Positions 26,661 to 60,704 of a DNA stretch of 64,000 bases are shown piece after piece. The stretch is taken from the NCBI RefSeq assembly GCF_046105845.1, contig NZ_CP151004.1, one strand, 5' to 3'. The notes below the pieces were generated by a model. The model searched no databases and was not told where the DNA came from. It worked only from the letters and a program-made list of their open reading frames with translations. The stretch is from Escherichia coli. Its GTDB lineage: Bacteria > Pseudomonadota > Gammaproteobacteria > Enterobacterales > Enterobacteriaceae. Both the position numbers and the translations under genes were made by a program. Positions within the stretch are counted from its first letter, which is position 1. Each line of letters starts with the position of its first letter.

Positions 26661-27095
26661 CAGTGTTTCTCCTTTCGCCCGCCAGAGTAAAAAGCAACCG
26701 TTTACGTTAATGAAACTGTCTAAACACATGCTCGTGGAGTGCCAGTTTTTGCGAGGAAGGGGAGTTAGAGACAGGAATTGCGGAGGCAATCACATAATCG
26801 TGGTTAAACCACGAAAATGAGAAGAGAACCTGACAATGGAATTATCTGTAATTTTCTCATATTGATATTTCATTAATCATTCTGGCATGTCGCACTCTCG
26901 CTTTTAATCGTTTTTATCTGGATAGCGCTCTTTTGGTCGGCAATGTTGAAATAATGAAAGCGGCACAGATTGAGGGGCAATAATTTGAACTCAGTCGCAA
27001 AATTATAATTAAAACGGTCATGCTACCTAATATATGCCCGTTTATTGCATCGCGAAATTTGAGAAGACATAACTCATTAAATGAAAGGGATGCAA

Positions 27096-41967: not shown

Positions 41968-42288
41968 AACCCTCTCCTTAGCTTATACAGATATCATTGA
42001 GTGACCGGTGTTGAGAAATCCGGTGGTTTAGGGGGATAGAGCAACAATCGCACCACTCTTGCCAGGTTTGGCGGGAAATATAAAAAAATGTGAGGCGGCT
42101 CGAAACTTAAGGGCTTTTTGTGAATGAACTCACAGGTGCCAAATGAGAATTAAAATCACTCCTGAAAATTATTATTGCCAGCCCATTTATCACTTTTTCT
42201 CTTTTCTCAAAATCAGTGATTCCTTATCATTATGATAAAGAGTGCCGGAAGGATTAAATATTTGAACGCAATCGTTTAACTACGTTTT

Positions 42289-51585: not shown

Positions 51586-52060
51586 AAAGTCCCGGTAGTG
51601 GAATGACAGGCAAAGAGGTTTATTTCACTGTGACTTGCCAAAGTGATTGGTGTTTTCACAGCTATACCTGGGACTAACAATAAGTGTGCCAGAATTATCC
51701 GCGCGGCTGGAAAAGACTAATTTGACGGATAATGTGTGGGGTTGATCACAAATTGATGCCAGCTTCCGGTTGTTTGTAAAATACGAAAACGTTTGGCTTT
51801 TTTTATCGCGTTATTTATTTGCTGCTAAGTATCAGAAATAAGATAAAGGGACAGGCGATCTCTCTTCAGTTTGATAAACTCACCGCCGTAATTCTCATAT
51901 TGATATAGAAATGTGATATCTCTTCCATAATTTCATTAGAAAGTGATAAAAATCTTATGTTTTTATCAAAGCCAATTTCGCCTGAGTTAATATCATCATG
52001 ATCTATGAACCATCAACGTCTTCAATGATCGACTTTTAAGTAAGTCTGGAAGGTAAAGCT

Positions 52061-53839
52061 ATGGAGCTTGCTACTACGCAGTCAGTATTGATGCAAATTC
52101 AACCGACAATTCAGCGTTTTGCCAGAATGCTTGCCAGCGTTTTGCAGCTTGAGGTTGAGATCGTTGATGAAAACTTGTGTCGCGTCGCCGGAACGGGCGC
52201 GTATGGGAAGTTTCTTGGTCGCCAGTTGAGCGGCAACTCACGCCTGCTCCGCCACGTCCTGGAAACGAAAACTGAAAAAGTTGTGACACAGTCTCGCTTC
52301 GATCCCCTTTGTGAAGGTTGCGATAGTAAAGAAAATTGCCGCGAAAAAGCATTTCTGGGTACGCCTGTCATTTTACAGGATCGTTGTGTTGGGGTGATAA
52401 GTTTGATTGCCGTTACCCACGAGCAACAAGAGCATATTAGTGATAATTTACGCGAATTTTCTGATTACGTTCGCCATATATCCACCATTTTTGTTTCGAA
52501 ACTTCTGGAGGATCAGGGACCAGGAGATAACATCAGTAAAATATTCGCGACCATGATCGATAATATGGATCAGGGTGTATTAGTTGTTGATGACGATAAT
52601 CGGGTTCAGTTTGTTAATCAGACAGCCTTAAAAACACTCGGTGTTGTGCAAAATAATATTATTGGGAAACCTATCCGTTTCAGACCATTAACATTTGAGA
52701 GTAATTTTACCCATGGACATATGCAGCATATTGTTTCGTGGGACGATAAAAGTGAGTTAATCATTGGTCAATTGCATAACATTCAGGGCCGACAATTATT
52801 TTTAATGGCGTTTCACCAATCGCATACCAGTTTTTCTGTAGCAAATGCACCTGATGAACCGCATATTGAACAATTGGTTGGCGAGTGCCGTGTTATGCGG
52901 CAATTAAAACGACTCATTAGCCGTATTGCACCCAGCCCATCCAGCGTTATGGTGGTTGGTGAAAGCGGCACAGGTAAAGAAGTCGTCGCCCGTGCAATCC
53001 ATAAGTTGAGCGGAAGACGGAATAAACCCTTTATTGCTATCAACTGTGCCGCGATTCCGGAGCAGCTTCTGGAGAGCGAACTGTTCGGTTATGTTAAAGG
53101 CGCATTTACTGGCGCTTCTGCCAACGGTAAAACAGGGTTGATTCAGGCGGCGAATACGGGCACGCTGTTTCTCGATGAAATAGGTGATATGCCATTAATG
53201 TTGCAGGCTAAATTACTGCGCGCTATTGAGGCGCGTGAAATTCTGCCGATTGGTGCCAGTAGCCCAATACAAGTCGACATTCGCATCATTTCTGCAACTA
53301 ACCAGAATTTGGCCCAGTTCATTGCCGAAGGTAAATTCCGCGAAGATCTCTTCTACCGACTTAATGTTATCCCGATAACTCTGCCACCGCTGCGTGAACG
53401 TCAGGAAGATATTGAACTACTGGTGCATTACTTTTTACATCTGCATACCCGTCGTCTGGGATCGGTTTATCCGGGCATTGCTCCCGATGTCGTCGAAATA
53501 TTGCGTAAGCATCGTTGGCCCGGAAACCTGCGCGAGTTAAGCAATTTGATGGAATATCTGGTTAACGTGGTTCCTTCAGGTGAAGTTATCGACAGCACGC
53601 TATTGCCGCCAAATCTGCTGAATAATGGCACAACGGAGCAAAGTGGTGTAACAGAGGTCAACGAGGCGCACCTGGCACTCGATGATGCGGGCGGCACGGC
53701 GCTGGAGGAGATGGAAAAGCAAATGATCCGCGAGGCGCTTTCACGTCATAACAGCAAGAAGCAAGTTGCTGATGAACTGGGCATCGGCATTGCTACGCTC
53801 TATCGCAAGATTAAGAAATATGAGTTGTTAAACACATAA
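52061..53839 (+). CDS. ygeV: Sigma-54-dependent transcriptional activator (bacterial enhancer-binding protein)
   Basis: 592 aa; AAA+ sigma-54 interaction domain (GESGTGKE Walker A, GAFTGA motif, C-terminal HTH). Confidence 0.92.
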   Translation: MELATTQSVLMQIQPTIQRFARMLASVLQLEVEIVDENLCRVAGTGAYGKFLGRQLSGNSRLLRHVLETKTEKVVTQSRFDPLCEGCDSKENCREKAFLGTPVILQDRCVGVISLIAVTHEQQEHISDNLREFSDYVRHISTIFVSKLLEDQGPGDNISKIFATMIDNMDQGVLVVDDDNRVQFVNQTALKTLGVVQNNIIGKPIRFRPLTFESNFTHGHMQHIVSWDDKSELIIGQLHNIQGRQLFLMAFHQSHTSFSVANAPDEPHIEQLVGECRVMRQLKRLISRIAPSPSSVMVVGESGTGKEVVARAIHKLSGRRNKPFIAINCAAIPEQLLESELFGYVKGAFTGASANGKTGLIQAANTGTLFLDEIGDMPLMLQAKLLRAIEAREILPIGASSPIQVDIRIISATNQNLAQFIAEGKFREDLFYRLNVIPITLPPLRERQEDIELLVHYFLHLHTRRLGSVYPGIAPDVVEILRKHRWPGNLRELSNLMEYLVNVVPSGEVIDSTLLPPNLLNNGTTEQSGVTEVNEAHLALDDAGGTALEEMEKQMIREALSRHNSKKQVADELGIGIATLYRKIKKYELLNT

Positions 53840-55243: not shown

Positions 55244-57502
55244 TCAAATCAATCCTGCCAGATGGAACTCTTCATATAACCGTTTTGGCGTCAGCGGCAG
55301 TGTATTGATTGCAACACCGGTAGCCATCTTCACCGCGTTACGAATAGCAGCGGCAACAGGAATTATTGGTGGCTCACCCAGTGACTTATGTCCGTATGCG
55401 GATTGCGGCTCATTGATTTCGACAAACGCGCTTTCCAGTTGTGGCAGATCCGGCATGGTGGGCATTTTGTAATCCAGCAGATTGGGGTTACGGACCACGC
55501 CGCTTTTCGCATCGATGATCATCTCTTCAAATAGCGCCCAGCCAATGCCCATTCCCATTCCGCCGTGTACCTGACCTTCTGCCAGCAACGGATTAAGAAT
55601 ATGGCCCGAATCATGAACGTTGAGGATGCGGTTGATGGTGACTTTGCACAGCGCAATATCGACCGTCAGATCAACAAAGGTACAGCCAAACGCCGGTGGG
55701 TTAGTGGTGGTTTTGATGGAGCTTTCAGCAGAGAGCTGCCCACCGCGTTCAGGGTGGTAGAAAGCGTCCATCGCCAAATCTTTTAAAGACATTAACGGCT
55801 CTTCCGGTCGTTCAACCAGCACGATATGGCCTTTTATCAGGGTCAGATTCATCGCTGACTGATGTAGCATGACTGCGGCGTGAGCGATGATTTTCTCTTT
55901 TATTAACAGTGCCGCACTGCGCAGCGCAGGCGCGGCAACATAGCTCTGCCGTGAGGCAAATGCGCCGGGATCGAACGGCGTAACATCGGTATCTTGTGTT
56001 GAAATAACGCGAACGTCGCTGACCGGAACCCCCACGGTTTCTGCCACCATTTGCGAGAAGACGGTGTCGGCACCCTGGCCGATTTCCGTCGCGCCGCTTT
56101 GCACGTTGATGGTTCCATCCTGATTCATCAGAAGGCGCGCGCCTGCTATTTCTACGCCGACAGGCCAGGTGTTCGAGGTGTAGCTAAAACAGGCGACGCC
56201 AACGCCGCGGCGTAAATTGCCTTGCTGGTTCTGGCACTCTGCACGGCGTTTTTCCCATTCAAAGATTTTCCGGCCTTTTTCAAGACACTCCGGCAACCCT
56301 GCGCTGTAAATACGTTTGCCTGTGAGCGGATTAGCATCTCCTTCGCGGGCGGCGTTGCGTAAACGAATTTCAACAGGATCAATACCTAACGCTGTCGCGG
56401 CGTCATCAAGCATAGACTCAACGGCAAATACGACTTGTGGCGCGCCATAACCACGCATCGCACCAGCCGAGGGGAGGTTGGTATAGCAGGTCTTTGAACT
56501 GTAAGCGTAGGCACAACGAGGATAAAGGTAAGCGACTTTATTCCCCCCTGCAGAAGCGATGGAGTGCCCGTGAGATGCATAAGCGCCGGTGTTAGACAGA
56601 ACATCCAGACTATAACCTTTCAATGTTCCGTCGCGGTTCACGCCCATTTGCCCGTCAATAGTAAAAGCGTGGCGGGTACGGGTTGCGAGGAAACACTCTT
56701 CACGGCTAAGGGAAACTTTCACCGGAATGCCGCCAAGCTTGCTGGTCAGGAATGCCGCCATTGGCTCTTCCAGTACATCCTGTTTATTACCAAAACCGCC
56801 ACCGACAAACGGTTTGATGACTCGTACGCATGACCAGGGGATATCCAGCGCCTGACCAACCACGCGGCGCACAATGTGCGGGATCTGGGTGCTGGAAACG
56901 ATGGTAATTCGCGAGTCATCTTCCATCCATGCCAGCGATGTCACGCTTTCCATGTGACAATGTTGAATGACCGGCGTCTGATAGTGCCCCTGTACCTGGT
57001 AGTCGGCGGCATCGATTGTTTGTTGGACATTGCCCGTCGACATCGTGCTTTGTTTTAGTAAATTGCCGCCGTTATGGATTGGTTCAGCGTCATCAGCCAG
57101 CGCCGCTTCTGGGGTGGTGATAACGGGTAATTCTTGCCACTCAATGCTGACCAATTGCGCCGCTTTTTCTGCCGTGAGTTCATCACGGGCCACGACGATG
57201 GCAACGGCGTCTCCATGGTGACGAACATGGCGAGTTAGCAGTGCGCGATCGGCGGTATCGCGCTTGTTTTCGTCAAGTGTCCAGGCATGCCCAGCTGTAG
57301 CGAATGGGATATCAGGCACATCTTCCCAGGTAAAAATCGCCAGTACGCCTGGTAAACTTCTGGCTTGTTCATCATTAATACTTACGGCATAACCATGTGC
57401 GATAGGGCTACGTACATATTTCGCGTAACACATGCCCGCCATAACATAATCGTCAGTATATCGTGCCCGCCCGGTGACCTTAGCAATGGCATCGACGCGC
57501 AT
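55244..57502 (-). CDS. xdhA: Xanthine dehydrogenase molybdenum-binding subunit
   Basis: Start set at MRVDAIAKVTGRARYTDDY... to give 752 aa; the track ORF extends 13 codons further upstream. Confidence 0.92.
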   Translation of the reverse strand: MRVDAIAKVTGRARYTDDYVMAGMCYAKYVRSPIAHGYAVSINDEQARSLPGVLAIFTWEDVPDIPFATAGHAWTLDENKRDTADRALLTRHVRHHGDAVAIVVARDELTAEKAAQLVSIEWQELPVITTPEAALADDAEPIHNGGNLLKQSTMSTGNVQQTIDAADYQVQGHYQTPVIQHCHMESVTSLAWMEDDSRITIVSSTQIPHIVRRVVGQALDIPWSCVRVIKPFVGGGFGNKQDVLEEPMAAFLTSKLGGIPVKVSLSREECFLATRTRHAFTIDGQMGVNRDGTLKGYSLDVLSNTGAYASHGHSIASAGGNKVAYLYPRCAYAYSSKTCYTNLPSAGAMRGYGAPQVVFAVESMLDDAATALGIDPVEIRLRNAAREGDANPLTGKRIYSAGLPECLEKGRKIFEWEKRRAECQNQQGNLRRGVGVACFSYTSNTWPVGVEIAGARLLMNQDGTINVQSGATEIGQGADTVFSQMVAETVGVPVSDVRVISTQDTDVTPFDPGAFASRQSYVAAPALRSAALLIKEKIIAHAAVMLHQSAMNLTLIKGHIVLVERPEEPLMSLKDLAMDAFYHPERGGQLSAESSIKTTTNPPAFGCTFVDLTVDIALCKVTINRILNVHDSGHILNPLLAEGQVHGGMGMGIGWALFEEMIIDAKSGVVRNPNLLDYKMPTMPDLPQLESAFVEINEPQSAYGHKSLGEPPIIPVAAAIRNAVKMATGVAINTLPLTPKRLYEEFHLAGLI

Positions 57503-57649
57503 GCAAGATTCACCCGTAGCGGTTGCTTCCCGCGCTTCCATAGAAATCCCCTCGATTTGAACATTTGGTTCTTATGGCAAAGATTTAGTCTAAGCAGGCA
57601 AGATTTACGCCAGAAACGACGATAAGCGTTAAGGGAGGAAGGAAGTGTG

Positions 57650-57697
57650 ATGACGTTAAAAAAACACAGATATGATACGAAACAGGACCCTGAATAG
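57650..57697 (+). CDS. Candidate 15-aa ORF with strong SD (MTLKKHRYDTKQDPE) in the xdhA-ygeR divergent region
   Basis: aagggaggaaggaagtgtgATG: SD-like GGGAGG/GGAAGG upstream of the ATG; not in the ORF track; function unknown, may be spurious. Confidence 0.2.
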   Translation: MTLKKHRYDTKQDPE

Positions 57698-57956
57698 GGG
57701 CAGTGATACGTATCAATATGAGTGGCGATAAAATCAATGTGATAAATTGGGATTATTACGCATCAGGATGGGAAATAGGGTAAATGAGTCAGGAAATTCG
57801 ATACATCTATAGTGAATATTTTGCTGATGATACTTCCCTTTGCCAAATGAAATTAACCTCTTTCTCTATTACCGCGTTTTTCCAGAAGCAAGAGATTGGG
57901 TATCCAGAGGCTGGCTGCTATGATATGGCGTCTTGTTTTTTAAGCGAGGAAAGATT

Positions 57957-58709
57957 TTGAGTGCGGGACGCCTGAATAAAAAATCTCTGGGTATCGTGAT
58001 GTTGTTATCGATTGGACTGCTTTTGGCGGGCTGTTCGGGTAGCAAATCATCCGATACAGGAACGTATTCCGGCTCCGTTTACACCGTGAAACGGGGGGAT
58101 ACGCTATATCGTATTTCGCGCACCACGGGAACCAGCGTAAAAGAACTTGCGAGACTGAACGGCATTTCACCCCCTTACACCATTGAAGTTGGTCAGAAAC
58201 TAAAACTGGGTGGGGCGAAAAGTAGCAGTACACGTAAATCAACCGCCAAATCAACGACCAAAACCGCATCGGTTACACCGTCATCAGCAGTACCGAAATC
58301 TTCCTGGCCGCCAGTAGGGCAACGTTGTTGGTTATGGCCAACGACAGGGAAAGTTATCATGCCGTATTCGACAGCTGATGGCGGCAATAAAGGGATTGAT
58401 ATCTCAGCTCCACGGGGTACACCTATTTACGCCGCGGGTGCAGGAAAGGTGGTGTATGTGGGCAACCAGCTGCGTGGCTACGGTAATCTCATCATGATTA
58501 AACACAGTGAAGATTACATTACGGCTTACGCCCATAATGACACGATGCTGGTAAATAATGGGCAAAGCGTGAAGGCTGGGCAAAAAATCGCCACTATGGG
58601 GAGCACTGATGCGGCATCTGTTCGCCTGCATTTCCAGATTCGTTACCGTGCAACGGCAATTGATCCGCTGCGTTACTTGCCGCCTCAGGGCAGCAAGCCA
58701 AAATGCTGA
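57957..58709 (+). CDS. ygeR: LysM-domain / M23 peptidase-family lipoprotein
   Basis: Signal peptide with lipobox LLAGC; LysM motif (YTVKRGDTLYRISRTTG); C-terminal M23-like domain. Start uncertain: TTG at 57957 chosen, the track uses TTG at 57933. Confidence 0.85.
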   Translation: MSAGRLNKKSLGIVMLLSIGLLLAGCSGSKSSDTGTYSGSVYTVKRGDTLYRISRTTGTSVKELARLNGISPPYTIEVGQKLKLGGAKSSSTRKSTAKSTTKTASVTPSSAVPKSSWPPVGQRCWLWPTTGKVIMPYSTADGGNKGIDISAPRGTPIYAAGAGKVVYVGNQLRGYGNLIMIKHSEDYITAYAHNDTMLVNNGQSVKAGQKIATMGSTDAASVRLHFQIRYRATAIDPLRYLPPQGSKPKC

Positions 58710-58742
58710 TGGCGAATTAATCAGCAGTCAGCAGCGCGGCAC

Positions 58743-58770
58743 TTGCTAAGGAGAGCGTAAGGTTTATAAT
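58743..58770 (+). promoter_or_regulatory. Sigma-70 promoter of glyU (-35 TTGCTA, 16-nt spacer, -10 TATAAT, GC-rich discriminator)
   Basis: cTTGCTAaggagagcgtaaggttTATAATgccttacgc located 18 nt upstream of the tRNA 5' end. Confidence 0.65.
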
Positions 58771-58787
58771 GCCTTACGCATCTCGAA

Positions 58788-58861
58788 GCGGGCGTAGTTC
58801 AATGGTAGAACGAGAGCTTCCCAAGCTCTATACGAGGGTTCGATTCCCTTCGCCCGCTCCA
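58788..58861 (+). tRNA. glyU: tRNA-Gly (anticodon CCC)
   Basis: 74 nt: acceptor stem gcgggcg/cgcccgc, anticodon loop cttCCCaag, T-arm ggttcgattcc, and 3' end ...tcca (CCA not encoded). Confidence 0.93.
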
Positions 58862-59081
58862 ATTTATCTTCACCGCATCAACCTGTCATTTTTGTTGTAT
58901 CTTATTTTCCATATTATCTTAATTCAATCGCTTCAGACTTTTCGCAATCGCCGAAATACTTCCCCATTTTTTTGTAAATAAAAGCGTTTACGCAATGCAA
59001 TCCATTTGTAACAACCCAGGTAAAATACCTTATTTTCAAGTTGTTAAATAAGTGGTTATCTACGCTTTTAACAAACGATTG

Positions 59082-60704
59082 ATGGAATCTTTTATGAAAG
59101 GGAAATCTACATTAACTCTTCTGCTCGCTGGTATATTTTCATGCGGCACATGCCAGGCGACAGGGGCAGAAGTGACGAGTGAATCTGTATTTAACATTCT
59201 TAATTCCACGGGGGCAGCAACTGATAAAAGTTATTTATCGTTAAATCCAGATAAGTATCCTAATTATCGTCTTCTGATTCACTCAGCCAAATTAAAAAAT
59301 GAAATAAAGAGCCACTATACCAAAGACGAAATTCAAGGATTGTTAACATTAACAGAAAATACACGAAAGTTAACGTTGACGGAGAAACCCTGGGGAACAT
59401 TTATTCTTGCTTCTACTTTCGAAGATGACAAAACAGCGGCAGAAACCCACTATGATGCTGTCTGGCTGAGGGATAGTTTATGGGGCTATATGGCATTAGT
59501 ATCAGAACAGGGAAATAGTGTAGCCGCAAAAAAGGTTCTGCTCACTCTGTGGGATTATATGTCTACGCCCGACCAGATTAAGCGGATGCAGGATGTCATT
59601 AGCAACCCAAAACGACTGGATGGAATTCCCGGGCAAATGAATGCTGTGCATATCCGATTTGACAGCAACTCCCCCGTGATGGCAGATGTGCAGGAAGAAG
59701 GCAAGCCGCAGCTGTGGAACCATAAACAAAATGATGCTTTAGGTCTTTATCTTGATCTCCTTATACAAGCAATCGACACTGGTACTATTAACGCTGAAGA
59801 CTGGGAAAAAGGTGACCGATTAAAATCGATTGCGCTGTTGGTTGCTTATCTGGATAAAGCCAATTTCTATGTTATGGAAGATTCCGGAGCGTGGGAAGAA
59901 GATGCCAGATTAAACACATCTTCCGTTGCACTGGTGACCTCTGGACTGGAACGTTTGTCGAACTTACTCTCGAAGAAAGACTCTGTTTTTATCTCTGATT
60001 TACTACGCGAAGCTAAAGCCAATGAACTGGATGAAACTCTTTCAACAACGAGGTTGAACCATCTCATAGATAAAGGGTATGAAAGAATAACGCTACAGCT
60101 TGATTTAGGGGGAGAATCCCCTGGTTATCTGGAAAAAGATAAACATTACAGAGAAGCTGATGCGGCCTTACTTAATGTTATTTATCCTGCAAATCTTTCA
60201 AAGATAAATACCAGAAGAAAAGAGCAAGTTCTAAAAATAGTTAAAAAACTAGCAGGTCCGTATGGTATAAAAAGATACGAGAAGGATAATTATCAGTCGG
60301 CAAATTTTTGGTTCAATGATATTAAAACTGATACTGATGAAAATTCACATGCGAAAAGAGAAAAGAGCTTCATTCCATCAACAGAAGCAGAATGGTTTTT
60401 TGACTCATGGTATGCAAAATCAGCAGCAATTGTTTATAAAGAATCAAGAAAAGAAGAATATTTGAATGACTCAGTGCAATTTATGAATAGATCATTGGCC
60501 CAAATAACAGGCGAGAATATGATTGGTGCAAATGGCAGGAGCGTACCTGAAATGGCACTTCCCGAAAGCTATAACTATATCCACAAGTCAGGAACTTTGC
60601 ATGAAGCGCCAAGCCCTATCATTCCGCTAAACTGGTCGAAAGCCTCAATGACTCTTATGTTGAAAGAAATGTCCAACCTTATCAATGATGAGGGAATTAA
60701 ATAG
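59082..60704 (+). CDS. Secreted glycoside-hydrolase-like protein, GH15 (glucoamylase-like) motifs
   Basis: Signal peptide MKGKSTLTLLLAGIFSCGTCQA; motifs AVWLRDSLWGY and EDSGAWEEDARLN resemble the GH15 substrate-binding Arg and catalytic acid regions. Start ambiguous (ATG at 59082 or 59094). Probably corresponds to the ygeQ locus, which is a pseudogene in K-12. Confidence 0.6.
   Translation: MESFMKGKSTLTLLLAGIFSCGTCQATGAEVTSESVFNILNSTGAATDKSYLSLNPDKYPNYRLLIHSAKLKNEIKSHYTKDEIQGLLTLTENTRKLTLTEKPWGTFILASTFEDDKTAAETHYDAVWLRDSLWGYMALVSEQGNSVAAKKVLLTLWDYMSTPDQIKRMQDVISNPKRLDGIPGQMNAVHIRFDSNSPVMADVQEEGKPQLWNHKQNDALGLYLDLLIQAIDTGTINAEDWEKGDRLKSIALLVAYLDKANFYVMEDSGAWEEDARLNTSSVALVTSGLERLSNLLSKKDSVFISDLLREAKANELDETLSTTRLNHLIDKGYERITLQLDLGGESPGYLEKDKHYREADAALLNVIYPANLSKINTRRKEQVLKIVKKLAGPYGIKRYEKDNYQSANFWFNDIKTDTDENSHAKREKSFIPSTEAEWFFDSWYAKSAAIVYKESRKEEYLNDSVQFMNRSLAQITGENMIGANGRSVPEMALPESYNYIHKSGTLHEAPSPIIPLNWSKASMTLMLKEMSNLINDEGIK

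Follow-up and report, generated by a model that had tools for sequence, protein, structure and literature searches.

The intergenic region between the divergent genes xdhA and actS (formerly called ygeR) in Escherichia coli contains a very short ORF led by an SD-like purine run, raising the question of whether a leader peptide or small protein is encoded upstream of actS, or whether the frame has arisen by chance. Here this question is explored in a 64-kb stretch of E. coli DNA (the window), the orientation of which is reversed with respect to K-12. An earlier note had described the locus as a divergent xdhA-ygeR control region of ~390 bp, extending from 57541 to 57932. The divergent arrangement is borne out by the annotation, in which xdhA lies on the minus and actS on the plus strand. 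The limits, however, must be redrawn. As xdhA starts at ATG 57541 and actS, according to RefSeq, at TTG 57957, the intergenic region comprises 57542-57956 (415 bp); the right-hand limit of 57932 was wrong because it had been set by an upstream in-frame codon, TTG 57933. With respect to xdhA, the K-12 annotation places the start 13 codons downstream of ATG 57541, giving a protein of 752 amino acids. The sequence evidence favours the longer 765-residue form, because a GAGGGG SD is located 6 nt upstream of ATG 57541 and this start is conserved across genera. A 701-nt query centred on the locus matched 5411 of 5426 complete E. coli genomes, with identities of 95-99.7%.

The sequence of the 15-codon ORF, which would encode MTLKKHRYDTKQDPE, is exactly as originally claimed (Table 1), and an in-frame GTG (57647) stands ahead of its ATG. 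In U00096.3 the ORF corresponds to complement(3000150..3000197). The purine run places the motif AGGA 6 nt from this ATG, and its anti-SD duplex energy of ~-11 kcal/mol ranks among the top five of the 2263 ATG contexts in the window (top 0.2%). The description of this stretch as unusually strong is therefore justified with respect to strength, but not with respect to rarity. Among the 996 ATG-started ORFs of 10-50 codons in the window a second is led by a sequence that is at least as strong (start 58165, minus strand, 28 codons, -12.1 kcal/mol). As this second ORF is antisense inside actS it is plainly spurious, and such pairs therefore occur about once per 64 kb, which is the level of chance. 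The antisense ORF (58082-58165) is in itself a useful internal control for fortuitous combinations of an SD and a short frame.

Alignment of nine E. coli strains shows the ORF to be undisrupted in each, with two polymorphisms, both nonsynonymous (T2M and P14S). It is not annotated as a CDS in the K-12 RefSeq record, although PGAP does annotate the tiny proteins YqfH and YqfG in the same neighbourhood. Indeed, neither K-12 nor five of six other strains have any CDS annotation in the region, the sole extra being an unrelated ORF of 58 amino acids. The latter, a ‘hypothetical protein' (WP_001329734.1) in strain EC488, was considered as an alternative small gene and ruled out, as both its ATG and its frame are strain-specific: the ATG occurs only in the window, EC488 and VCSW7, with the other E. 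coli strains having AAAAAG at this position together with indels of 1-3 nt. It is probably a chance ORF confined to these strains, and its annotation an artefact. A full-text literature search returned no match to the peptide MTLKKHRYDTKQDPE, and a tagRNA-seq paper on sigmaE does not mention ygeR, actS or xdhA. An Rfam scan of 57000-59200 detected no family at the ORF, the only hits being a tRNA-Gly and a sub-threshold tpke11 on that tRNA.

It should be emphasized that the ORF is located in the spacer of the sigma54 promoter of xdhA, and that the control region between xdhA and actS is largely known already. The sequence CTGGCGTAAATCTTGCC, which has the full -24/-12 core, corresponds to the sigma54 ChIP-seq site OS29, assigned to xdhA in Table 1 of the published study (motif centre 2998264 in U00096.2, PSSM 10.9, FAT 11, flagged as confirmed in EcoCyc; PMC4591121). 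The core is present in every one of the 30 sequences that we compared, in the form TGGCGTR-N4-TTGC. The operon xdhABC has been placed in a putative YgeV iModulon (PMC10602906), and published suggestions for the inducing signal include urate/purines, indole and ethanol. We propose that the ORF is most probably a chance frame within the enhancer-to-promoter spacer of this sigma54 promoter, and neither a small-protein gene nor a leader of actS. Of the options raised in the earlier note the ‘chance ORF' is thus the one favoured, as the conserved bases track the xdhA promoter and the peptide is unconserved. The features on which this proposal is based are listed in Table 1.

Table 1. Features of the xdhA-actS region and of the related sigma54 promoters in the window. 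Positions relative to xdhA are counted from its predicted TSS, the C of the -12 GC being taken as -12.
Feature	Window coordinates	Strand	Position relative to TSS	Remarks
xdhA	55244-57541	minus, leftward		765-aa form, start ATG 57541; PGAP
xdhA SD GAGGGG and start codon	57553-57548; 57541-57539	minus		ORF list, PGAP, block conserved across genera
xdhA ATG	57541	minus	+46	5'UTR of ~45 nt from the predicted TSS
Predicted xdhA TSS	~57586	minus	+1	from the -12 element; ~3000261 (plus strand) in U00096.3
sigma54 -24/-12 promoter of xdhA, CTGGCGTAAATCTTGCC	57613-57597	minus		pattern match, full TGGC-N7-TTGC core
SD-like purine run, AAGGGAGGAAGGAAG	57631-57645	plus	-45 to -59 (xdhA)	
Conserved element TGTGA-N6-TAAAA	57646-57661		centred -67.5 (xdhA)	CRP-like half-site and A-tract
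15-codon ORF, MTLKKHRYDTKQDPE	57650-57697	plus	-64 to -111 (xdhA)	ATG 57650, TAG 57695-57697
UAS inverted pair, TATCAATATGA and TCAATGTGATA	57711-57721; 57734-57744		starts -135 and -158 (xdhA orientation)	candidate YgeV/IsrR operator
58-codon ORF	57784-57960	plus		ORF list, annotation (WP_001329734.1 in EC488); overlaps actS start
Predicted actS sigma70 promoter	57896-57924	plus		-35 TTGGGT 57896-57901, 17-bp spacer, extended -10 TGcTATGAT 57916-57924
Predicted actS TSS	~57931	plus		from the extended -10 promoter; ~2999917 (minus strand) in U00096.3
actS SD GAGGA and TTG start	57946-57950; 57957-57959	plus, rightward		RefSeq annotation, cross-genus conservation
CRP-like site, xdhA	57646-57661		centre -67.5	8/10
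CRP-like site, ygeW	51735-51750		centre -77.5	9/10
CRP-like site, ygfK	42119-42134		centre -97.5	10/10
CRP-like site, ygfT	26984-26999		centre -68.5	8/10
TATCA-N3-TGATA-type copies	57711-57744; 51866-51905; 51991-52001; 42225-42237; 26857-26867			upstream of xdhA, ygeW, ygfK, ygfT

The evidence that carries this conclusion comes from a comparison across genera. A scan of representative genomes for XdhA yielded 32 loci (from Escherichia, Citrobacter, Kluyvera, Atlantibacter, Buttiauxella, Hafnia, Yokenella, Enterobacillus, Klebsiella indica, Trabulsiella and Pluralibacter), and the upstream regions were compared in 30 sequences representing at least 11 genera. Among these loci actS is the divergent neighbour of xdhA only in Escherichia, Citrobacter, Atlantibacter and K. 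indica. The alignment consists of sharply bounded conserved blocks, the sequence between which cannot be aligned. Two of the blocks are the SD and ATG of xdhA and, in all sequences, the sigma54 core. A third, TGTGA(TG)-NNN-TTAAAA, holds the ATG of the ORF together with codons 3-5, and a fourth comprises the inverted pair TATCA-N3-TGA(G) ... (C)TCA-N3-TGATA. The fifth lies just upstream of actS and is found only where actS is present.

The third block explains why the ORF appears to be conserved at its beginning. Its ATG is formed by the last three bases of TGTGATG and codons 3-5 (TTA AAA AAA) coincide with the A-tract, which accounts for the apparent conservation of the first five codons. After codon 5 the frame is not retained, ranging from 3 to 38 codons and specifying unrelated peptides among the 30 sequences, and the ATG itself is absent in nine of the 30, with E. 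whittamii, for example, having ACG at this position; the in-frame GTG occurs in nearly all. The conservation analysis that the earlier note had called for gives no indication that the frame is kept as a coding sequence: a small protein would be expected to have its frame, length and sequence preserved by purifying selection, whereas here only codons 1-5 are conserved. None of the three positions of codon 2 is fixed (ACG, TCG, TTG, ATG, GAG, ACC, CCG, CGC and ACT), and conserved bases reach 4 nt upstream of the ATG (TGTG), in a pattern of half-site, N6 and A-tract and not of codon periodicity. Judged from these sequences, the variation at codon 2 is that of the central spacer (N6) of a bipartite protein-binding site and not that of a codon. 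The position of the element is fixed by the xdhA promoter: in 26 of the 30 sequences the distance from the TCACA half to the TGGC downstream of it is exactly 33 nt, and in three it is 34 nt. Genera in which actS is not next to xdhA also have the element, namely Kluyvera, Yokenella, Trabulsiella, Pluralibacter, Buttiauxella and Enterobacillus.

The reciprocal comparison used the ActS orthologues of Salmonella, Enterobacter, Yokenella, Trabulsiella and E. fergusonii, whose five loci are unlinked to xdhA and have lysS/idi or other genes as neighbours. With E. coli these genes share only a proximal block (TTGGsN, 17 bp, TGnTAKNAT, GAGGA and TTG) no more than ~70 nt from the TTG start, and beyond this block their upstream sequences are unrelated. 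This block corresponds to the predicted actS promoter, which is conserved in all genera in which actS is linked to xdhA. Salmonella, Yokenella, Trabulsiella and E. fergusonii have it too, and in Enterobacter it is less well conserved. The promoter was missing from our consensus scan because its -35 matches at only 3/6 positions. The 500 nt upstream of the five unlinked actS genes contain neither a TGTGA-N6-TWAWA element nor a sigma54 core or a UAS motif, and nothing that resembles the ORF; in E. fergusonii the entire intergenic region upstream of actS measures 83 nt. As the element is retained upstream of xdhA without actS, and is absent from actS without xdhA, the conserved bases of the ORF travel with xdhA. 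Furthermore, ~200 nt separate the ORF stop from the predicted actS promoter downstream of it, and the ORF would therefore be outside the predicted actS mRNA.

The remaining conserved block suggests how the xdhA promoter may be activated. The position of the UAS pair, -158/-135, varies by no more than 2 nt across at least 11 genera. In the window the motif TATCA-N3-TGA occurs 13 times against 1.7 expected, a count reached in none of 100 shuffles, and eight of the 13 copies lie upstream of the four promoters of the cluster that are sigma54 ChIP-seq sites (xdhA, ygeW, ygfK and ygfT); a 12-mer, CTCATATTGATA, is identical at three of these four promoters. The gene ygeV (52061-53839) encodes PAS, Sigma54_activat (AAA+) and HTH_8 domains, and in at least seven genera xdhABC is found together with a YgeV orthologue. 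On the basis of the fixed position of the pair, the enrichment of the motif at the four promoters and the association of YgeV with xdhABC, we infer that the TATCA-N3-TGATA-type motif is a candidate operator of YgeV/IsrR. The literature searched contained no description of this motif at the four promoters. The palindrome TGATACGTATCA (57704-57715), which overlaps the proximal UAS site, was set aside, its extension being specific to E. coli.

Alternatively, the ORF could be translated into a leader peptide or small protein from a long 5'UTR of actS, and so control the gene in cis. Its well-spaced and strong SD-like run, its integrity in nine E. coli strains and its orientation, which is that of actS, are consistent with such a role, and like the leader-peptide systems trpL, pyrL and tnaC it is a very short intergenic ORF with a strong RBS-like sequence on the strand of the downstream gene. 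Unlike these systems, however, it has no promoter upstream (no plus-strand sigma70-like promoter was found upstream of 57631 by consensus scan and manual inspection) and no terminator or antiterminator downstream. Indeed, the consensus scan of 57400-58100 revealed no terminator-like site, and thus no terminator or attenuator after the ORF, and a single, weak, minus-strand promoter-like site; the only notable RNA hairpin (z = -2.4) lacks a U-tail and is formed by the TGATA/TATCA DNA repeats. Its peptide is unconserved, and its conserved bases are in register with the promoter of the divergent gene. The proximal promoter, moreover, is the sole upstream block that actS has in common in all contexts, and conservation is poor, even within Escherichia, over the ~260 nt that separate the ORF from actS. 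EcoCyc, as cited in PMC8360153, predicts a sigmaE-type actS promoter 186 nt upstream of the TTG, from which our predicted extended -10 promoter differs. This sigmaE site was rejected as support for a leader, because it is downstream of the ORF, and the segment containing it lacks conservation even among Escherichia species. With prediction and conservation placing the ORF off the 5'UTR, no RNA switch in evidence and no counterpart at the five actS loci unlinked to xdhA, we regard a leader of actS, the role put forward in the earlier note, as extremely unlikely; the fixed 33-nt distance from the xdhA promoter, the unlinked actS genes that are devoid of the element, and an ORF whose length and peptide vary, whose ATG is missing in nine of 30 sequences and that no terminator or attenuator follows, all speak against it. 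It could also be argued that the ORF is a micro-protein of the Escherichia lineage, or a uORF of 5-8 codons, that is expressed from pervasive or unmapped transcription independently of actS. Here the SD-like run deserves attention. It is purine-rich in all Escherichia species, in which, as in a near-identical record labelled Citrobacter sp. MGH106, its energy is -11 to -15 kcal/mol, compared with only -1 to -8.5 kcal/mol in other genera. An eight-codon MSLKK.. ORF recurs in E. albertii and strains E1V33 and E69, the ATG is kept in 21 of the 30 sequences and M-x-L-K-K/N is found in several genera. Genuine E. coli proteins of 15 residues do exist, an example being the one encoded by Spot 42 (PMC8916003), which the ORF resembles in size, ATG start and SD-like sequence. 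Such validated micro-proteins, however, have a mapped transcript, ribosome-profiling support and detection of the tagged protein, and what is available for the ORF is comparative sequence evidence, which argues against coding. The frame has 15 codons in E. coli and 6-9 in its sister species, with a changed C-terminal sequence, both polymorphisms in E. coli are nonsynonymous, E. whittamii has lost the ATG, conservation extends upstream of the start without codon periodicity, and K-12 RefSeq omits the ORF while including YqfH and YqfG. We consider a micro-protein of this kind improbable. More specifically, it is very improbable that the M-x-L-K-K... frame starting in TGTGATG (5-15 codons) is translated in Escherichia from a rightward transcript, so that an RBS and mini-ORF are overlaid on the enhancer spacer. 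Were this the case, the expression of xdhA or actS could be linked to translation of the mini-ORF in the spacer, or to transcription across the enhancer.

A different matter is whether the element that gives the ORF its conserved codons is a CRP site. Compared with TGTGA-N6-TCACA it matches at eight of 10 positions, with one perfect half, and the window has no significant excess of matches this good (35 versus 28 expected). The promoter model may be right with an element that is not bound by CRP but by IHF, by another regulator or by YgeV itself at a promoter-proximal half-site, or that acts as an intrinsic bend. Only one half is CRP-like, the other being a conserved A/T tract; cATCACA resembles the UAS sequence TATCACA, and the core ATCACA is likewise part of the distal UAS site, TTATCACATTGA. 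It is common for sigma54 promoters to rely on IHF or on bent DNA in the interval from the UAS to the core promoter. An IHF site at this position was nevertheless rejected, as the consensus WATCAA-N4-TTR is, in a manual comparison, poorly matched (core cATCAc, with CCT, CTA or TAA at the TTR position). In favour of CRP, the element has a fixed position across genera, good matches are located in the same spacer at ygfK (10/10) and ygeW (9/10), the CRP-like sites lie between UAS and sigma54 core at all four promoters, and their offsets differ by multiples of ~10 bp, a spacing that suggests a role in phased bending or co-activation. This is consistent with a report of a native Crp site in the ygeV-ygeW spacer, of control of the cluster by Crp and of glucose repression of the pathway (PMC12507026). 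An element other than a CRP site is a possibility that we hold tentatively, without preferring it.

Returning to the chance frame in the xdhA spacer, the proposed mechanism is as follows. Sigma54-RNA polymerase occupies CTGGCGTAAATCTTGCC, binding that is known from the published ChIP-seq data (PMC4591121), and transcription of xdhABC would require an AAA+ activator, most likely YgeV/IsrR of the same cluster. The activator may bind the inverted pair TATCA-N3-TGA / TCA-N3-TGATA at -158/-135 and would reach the polymerase through DNA looping. The loop could be aided by the TGTGA-N6-A-tract element at -67.5, either as a CRP site with one good half or as an intrinsic bend. The SD-like purine run would simply be the part of this spacer from -45 to -59, and actS would be transcribed from its own conserved extended -10 promoter. 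Such an arrangement resembles other enhancer-dependent sigma54 promoters that combine a UAS with an intervening bending site, such as glnAp2 with NtrC, hycA-hypA with FhlA, and prpBCDE with PrpR, IHF and CRP. Similar to these systems, xdhA has a GG-N10-GC core that is bound by sigma54 in vivo (PMC4591121), a paired inverted-repeat candidate UAS 110-160 bp upstream, a conserved and helically phased spacer element, and a bEBP gene, ygeV (PAS, AAA+ and HTH_8), in the same cluster. It differs from them in that the activator-operator pair is predicted from sequence, and in that the spacer element is CRP-like and not a consensus IHF site.

As a gene candidate the ORF therefore matters little. It does, however, show how a conserved operator (TGTGATG and A-tract) beside a purine-rich spacer can mimic an SD-led mini-ORF with seemingly conserved codons. 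The more useful by-product of this analysis is that the sigma54 promoters of xdhA, ygeW, ygfK and ygfT share a candidate operator of the TATCA-N3-TGATA type and a phased CRP-like site. The purine/urate-degradation cluster to which they belong is of current interest with respect to gut urate homeostasis, and these shared motifs are testable targets for understanding how YgeV/IsrR and catabolite control may switch the cluster on.

Two further features of the region were observed. An inverted repeat specific to E. coli, ATATGATACG ... CGTATCAATAT (57670-57719), ties codons 7-10 of the ORF to the proximal UAS site and adds a third TATCATA-like half-site at approximately -87 to -97; the repeat is missing from the other Escherichia species. 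In E. coli ET82 an IS1-associated deletion reaches from uacT almost to the actS -35 region, ending just upstream of it (from ~57894 leftwards in the window); it removes xdhA, the whole purine cluster and the mini-ORF, and leaves actS and its proximal promoter intact.
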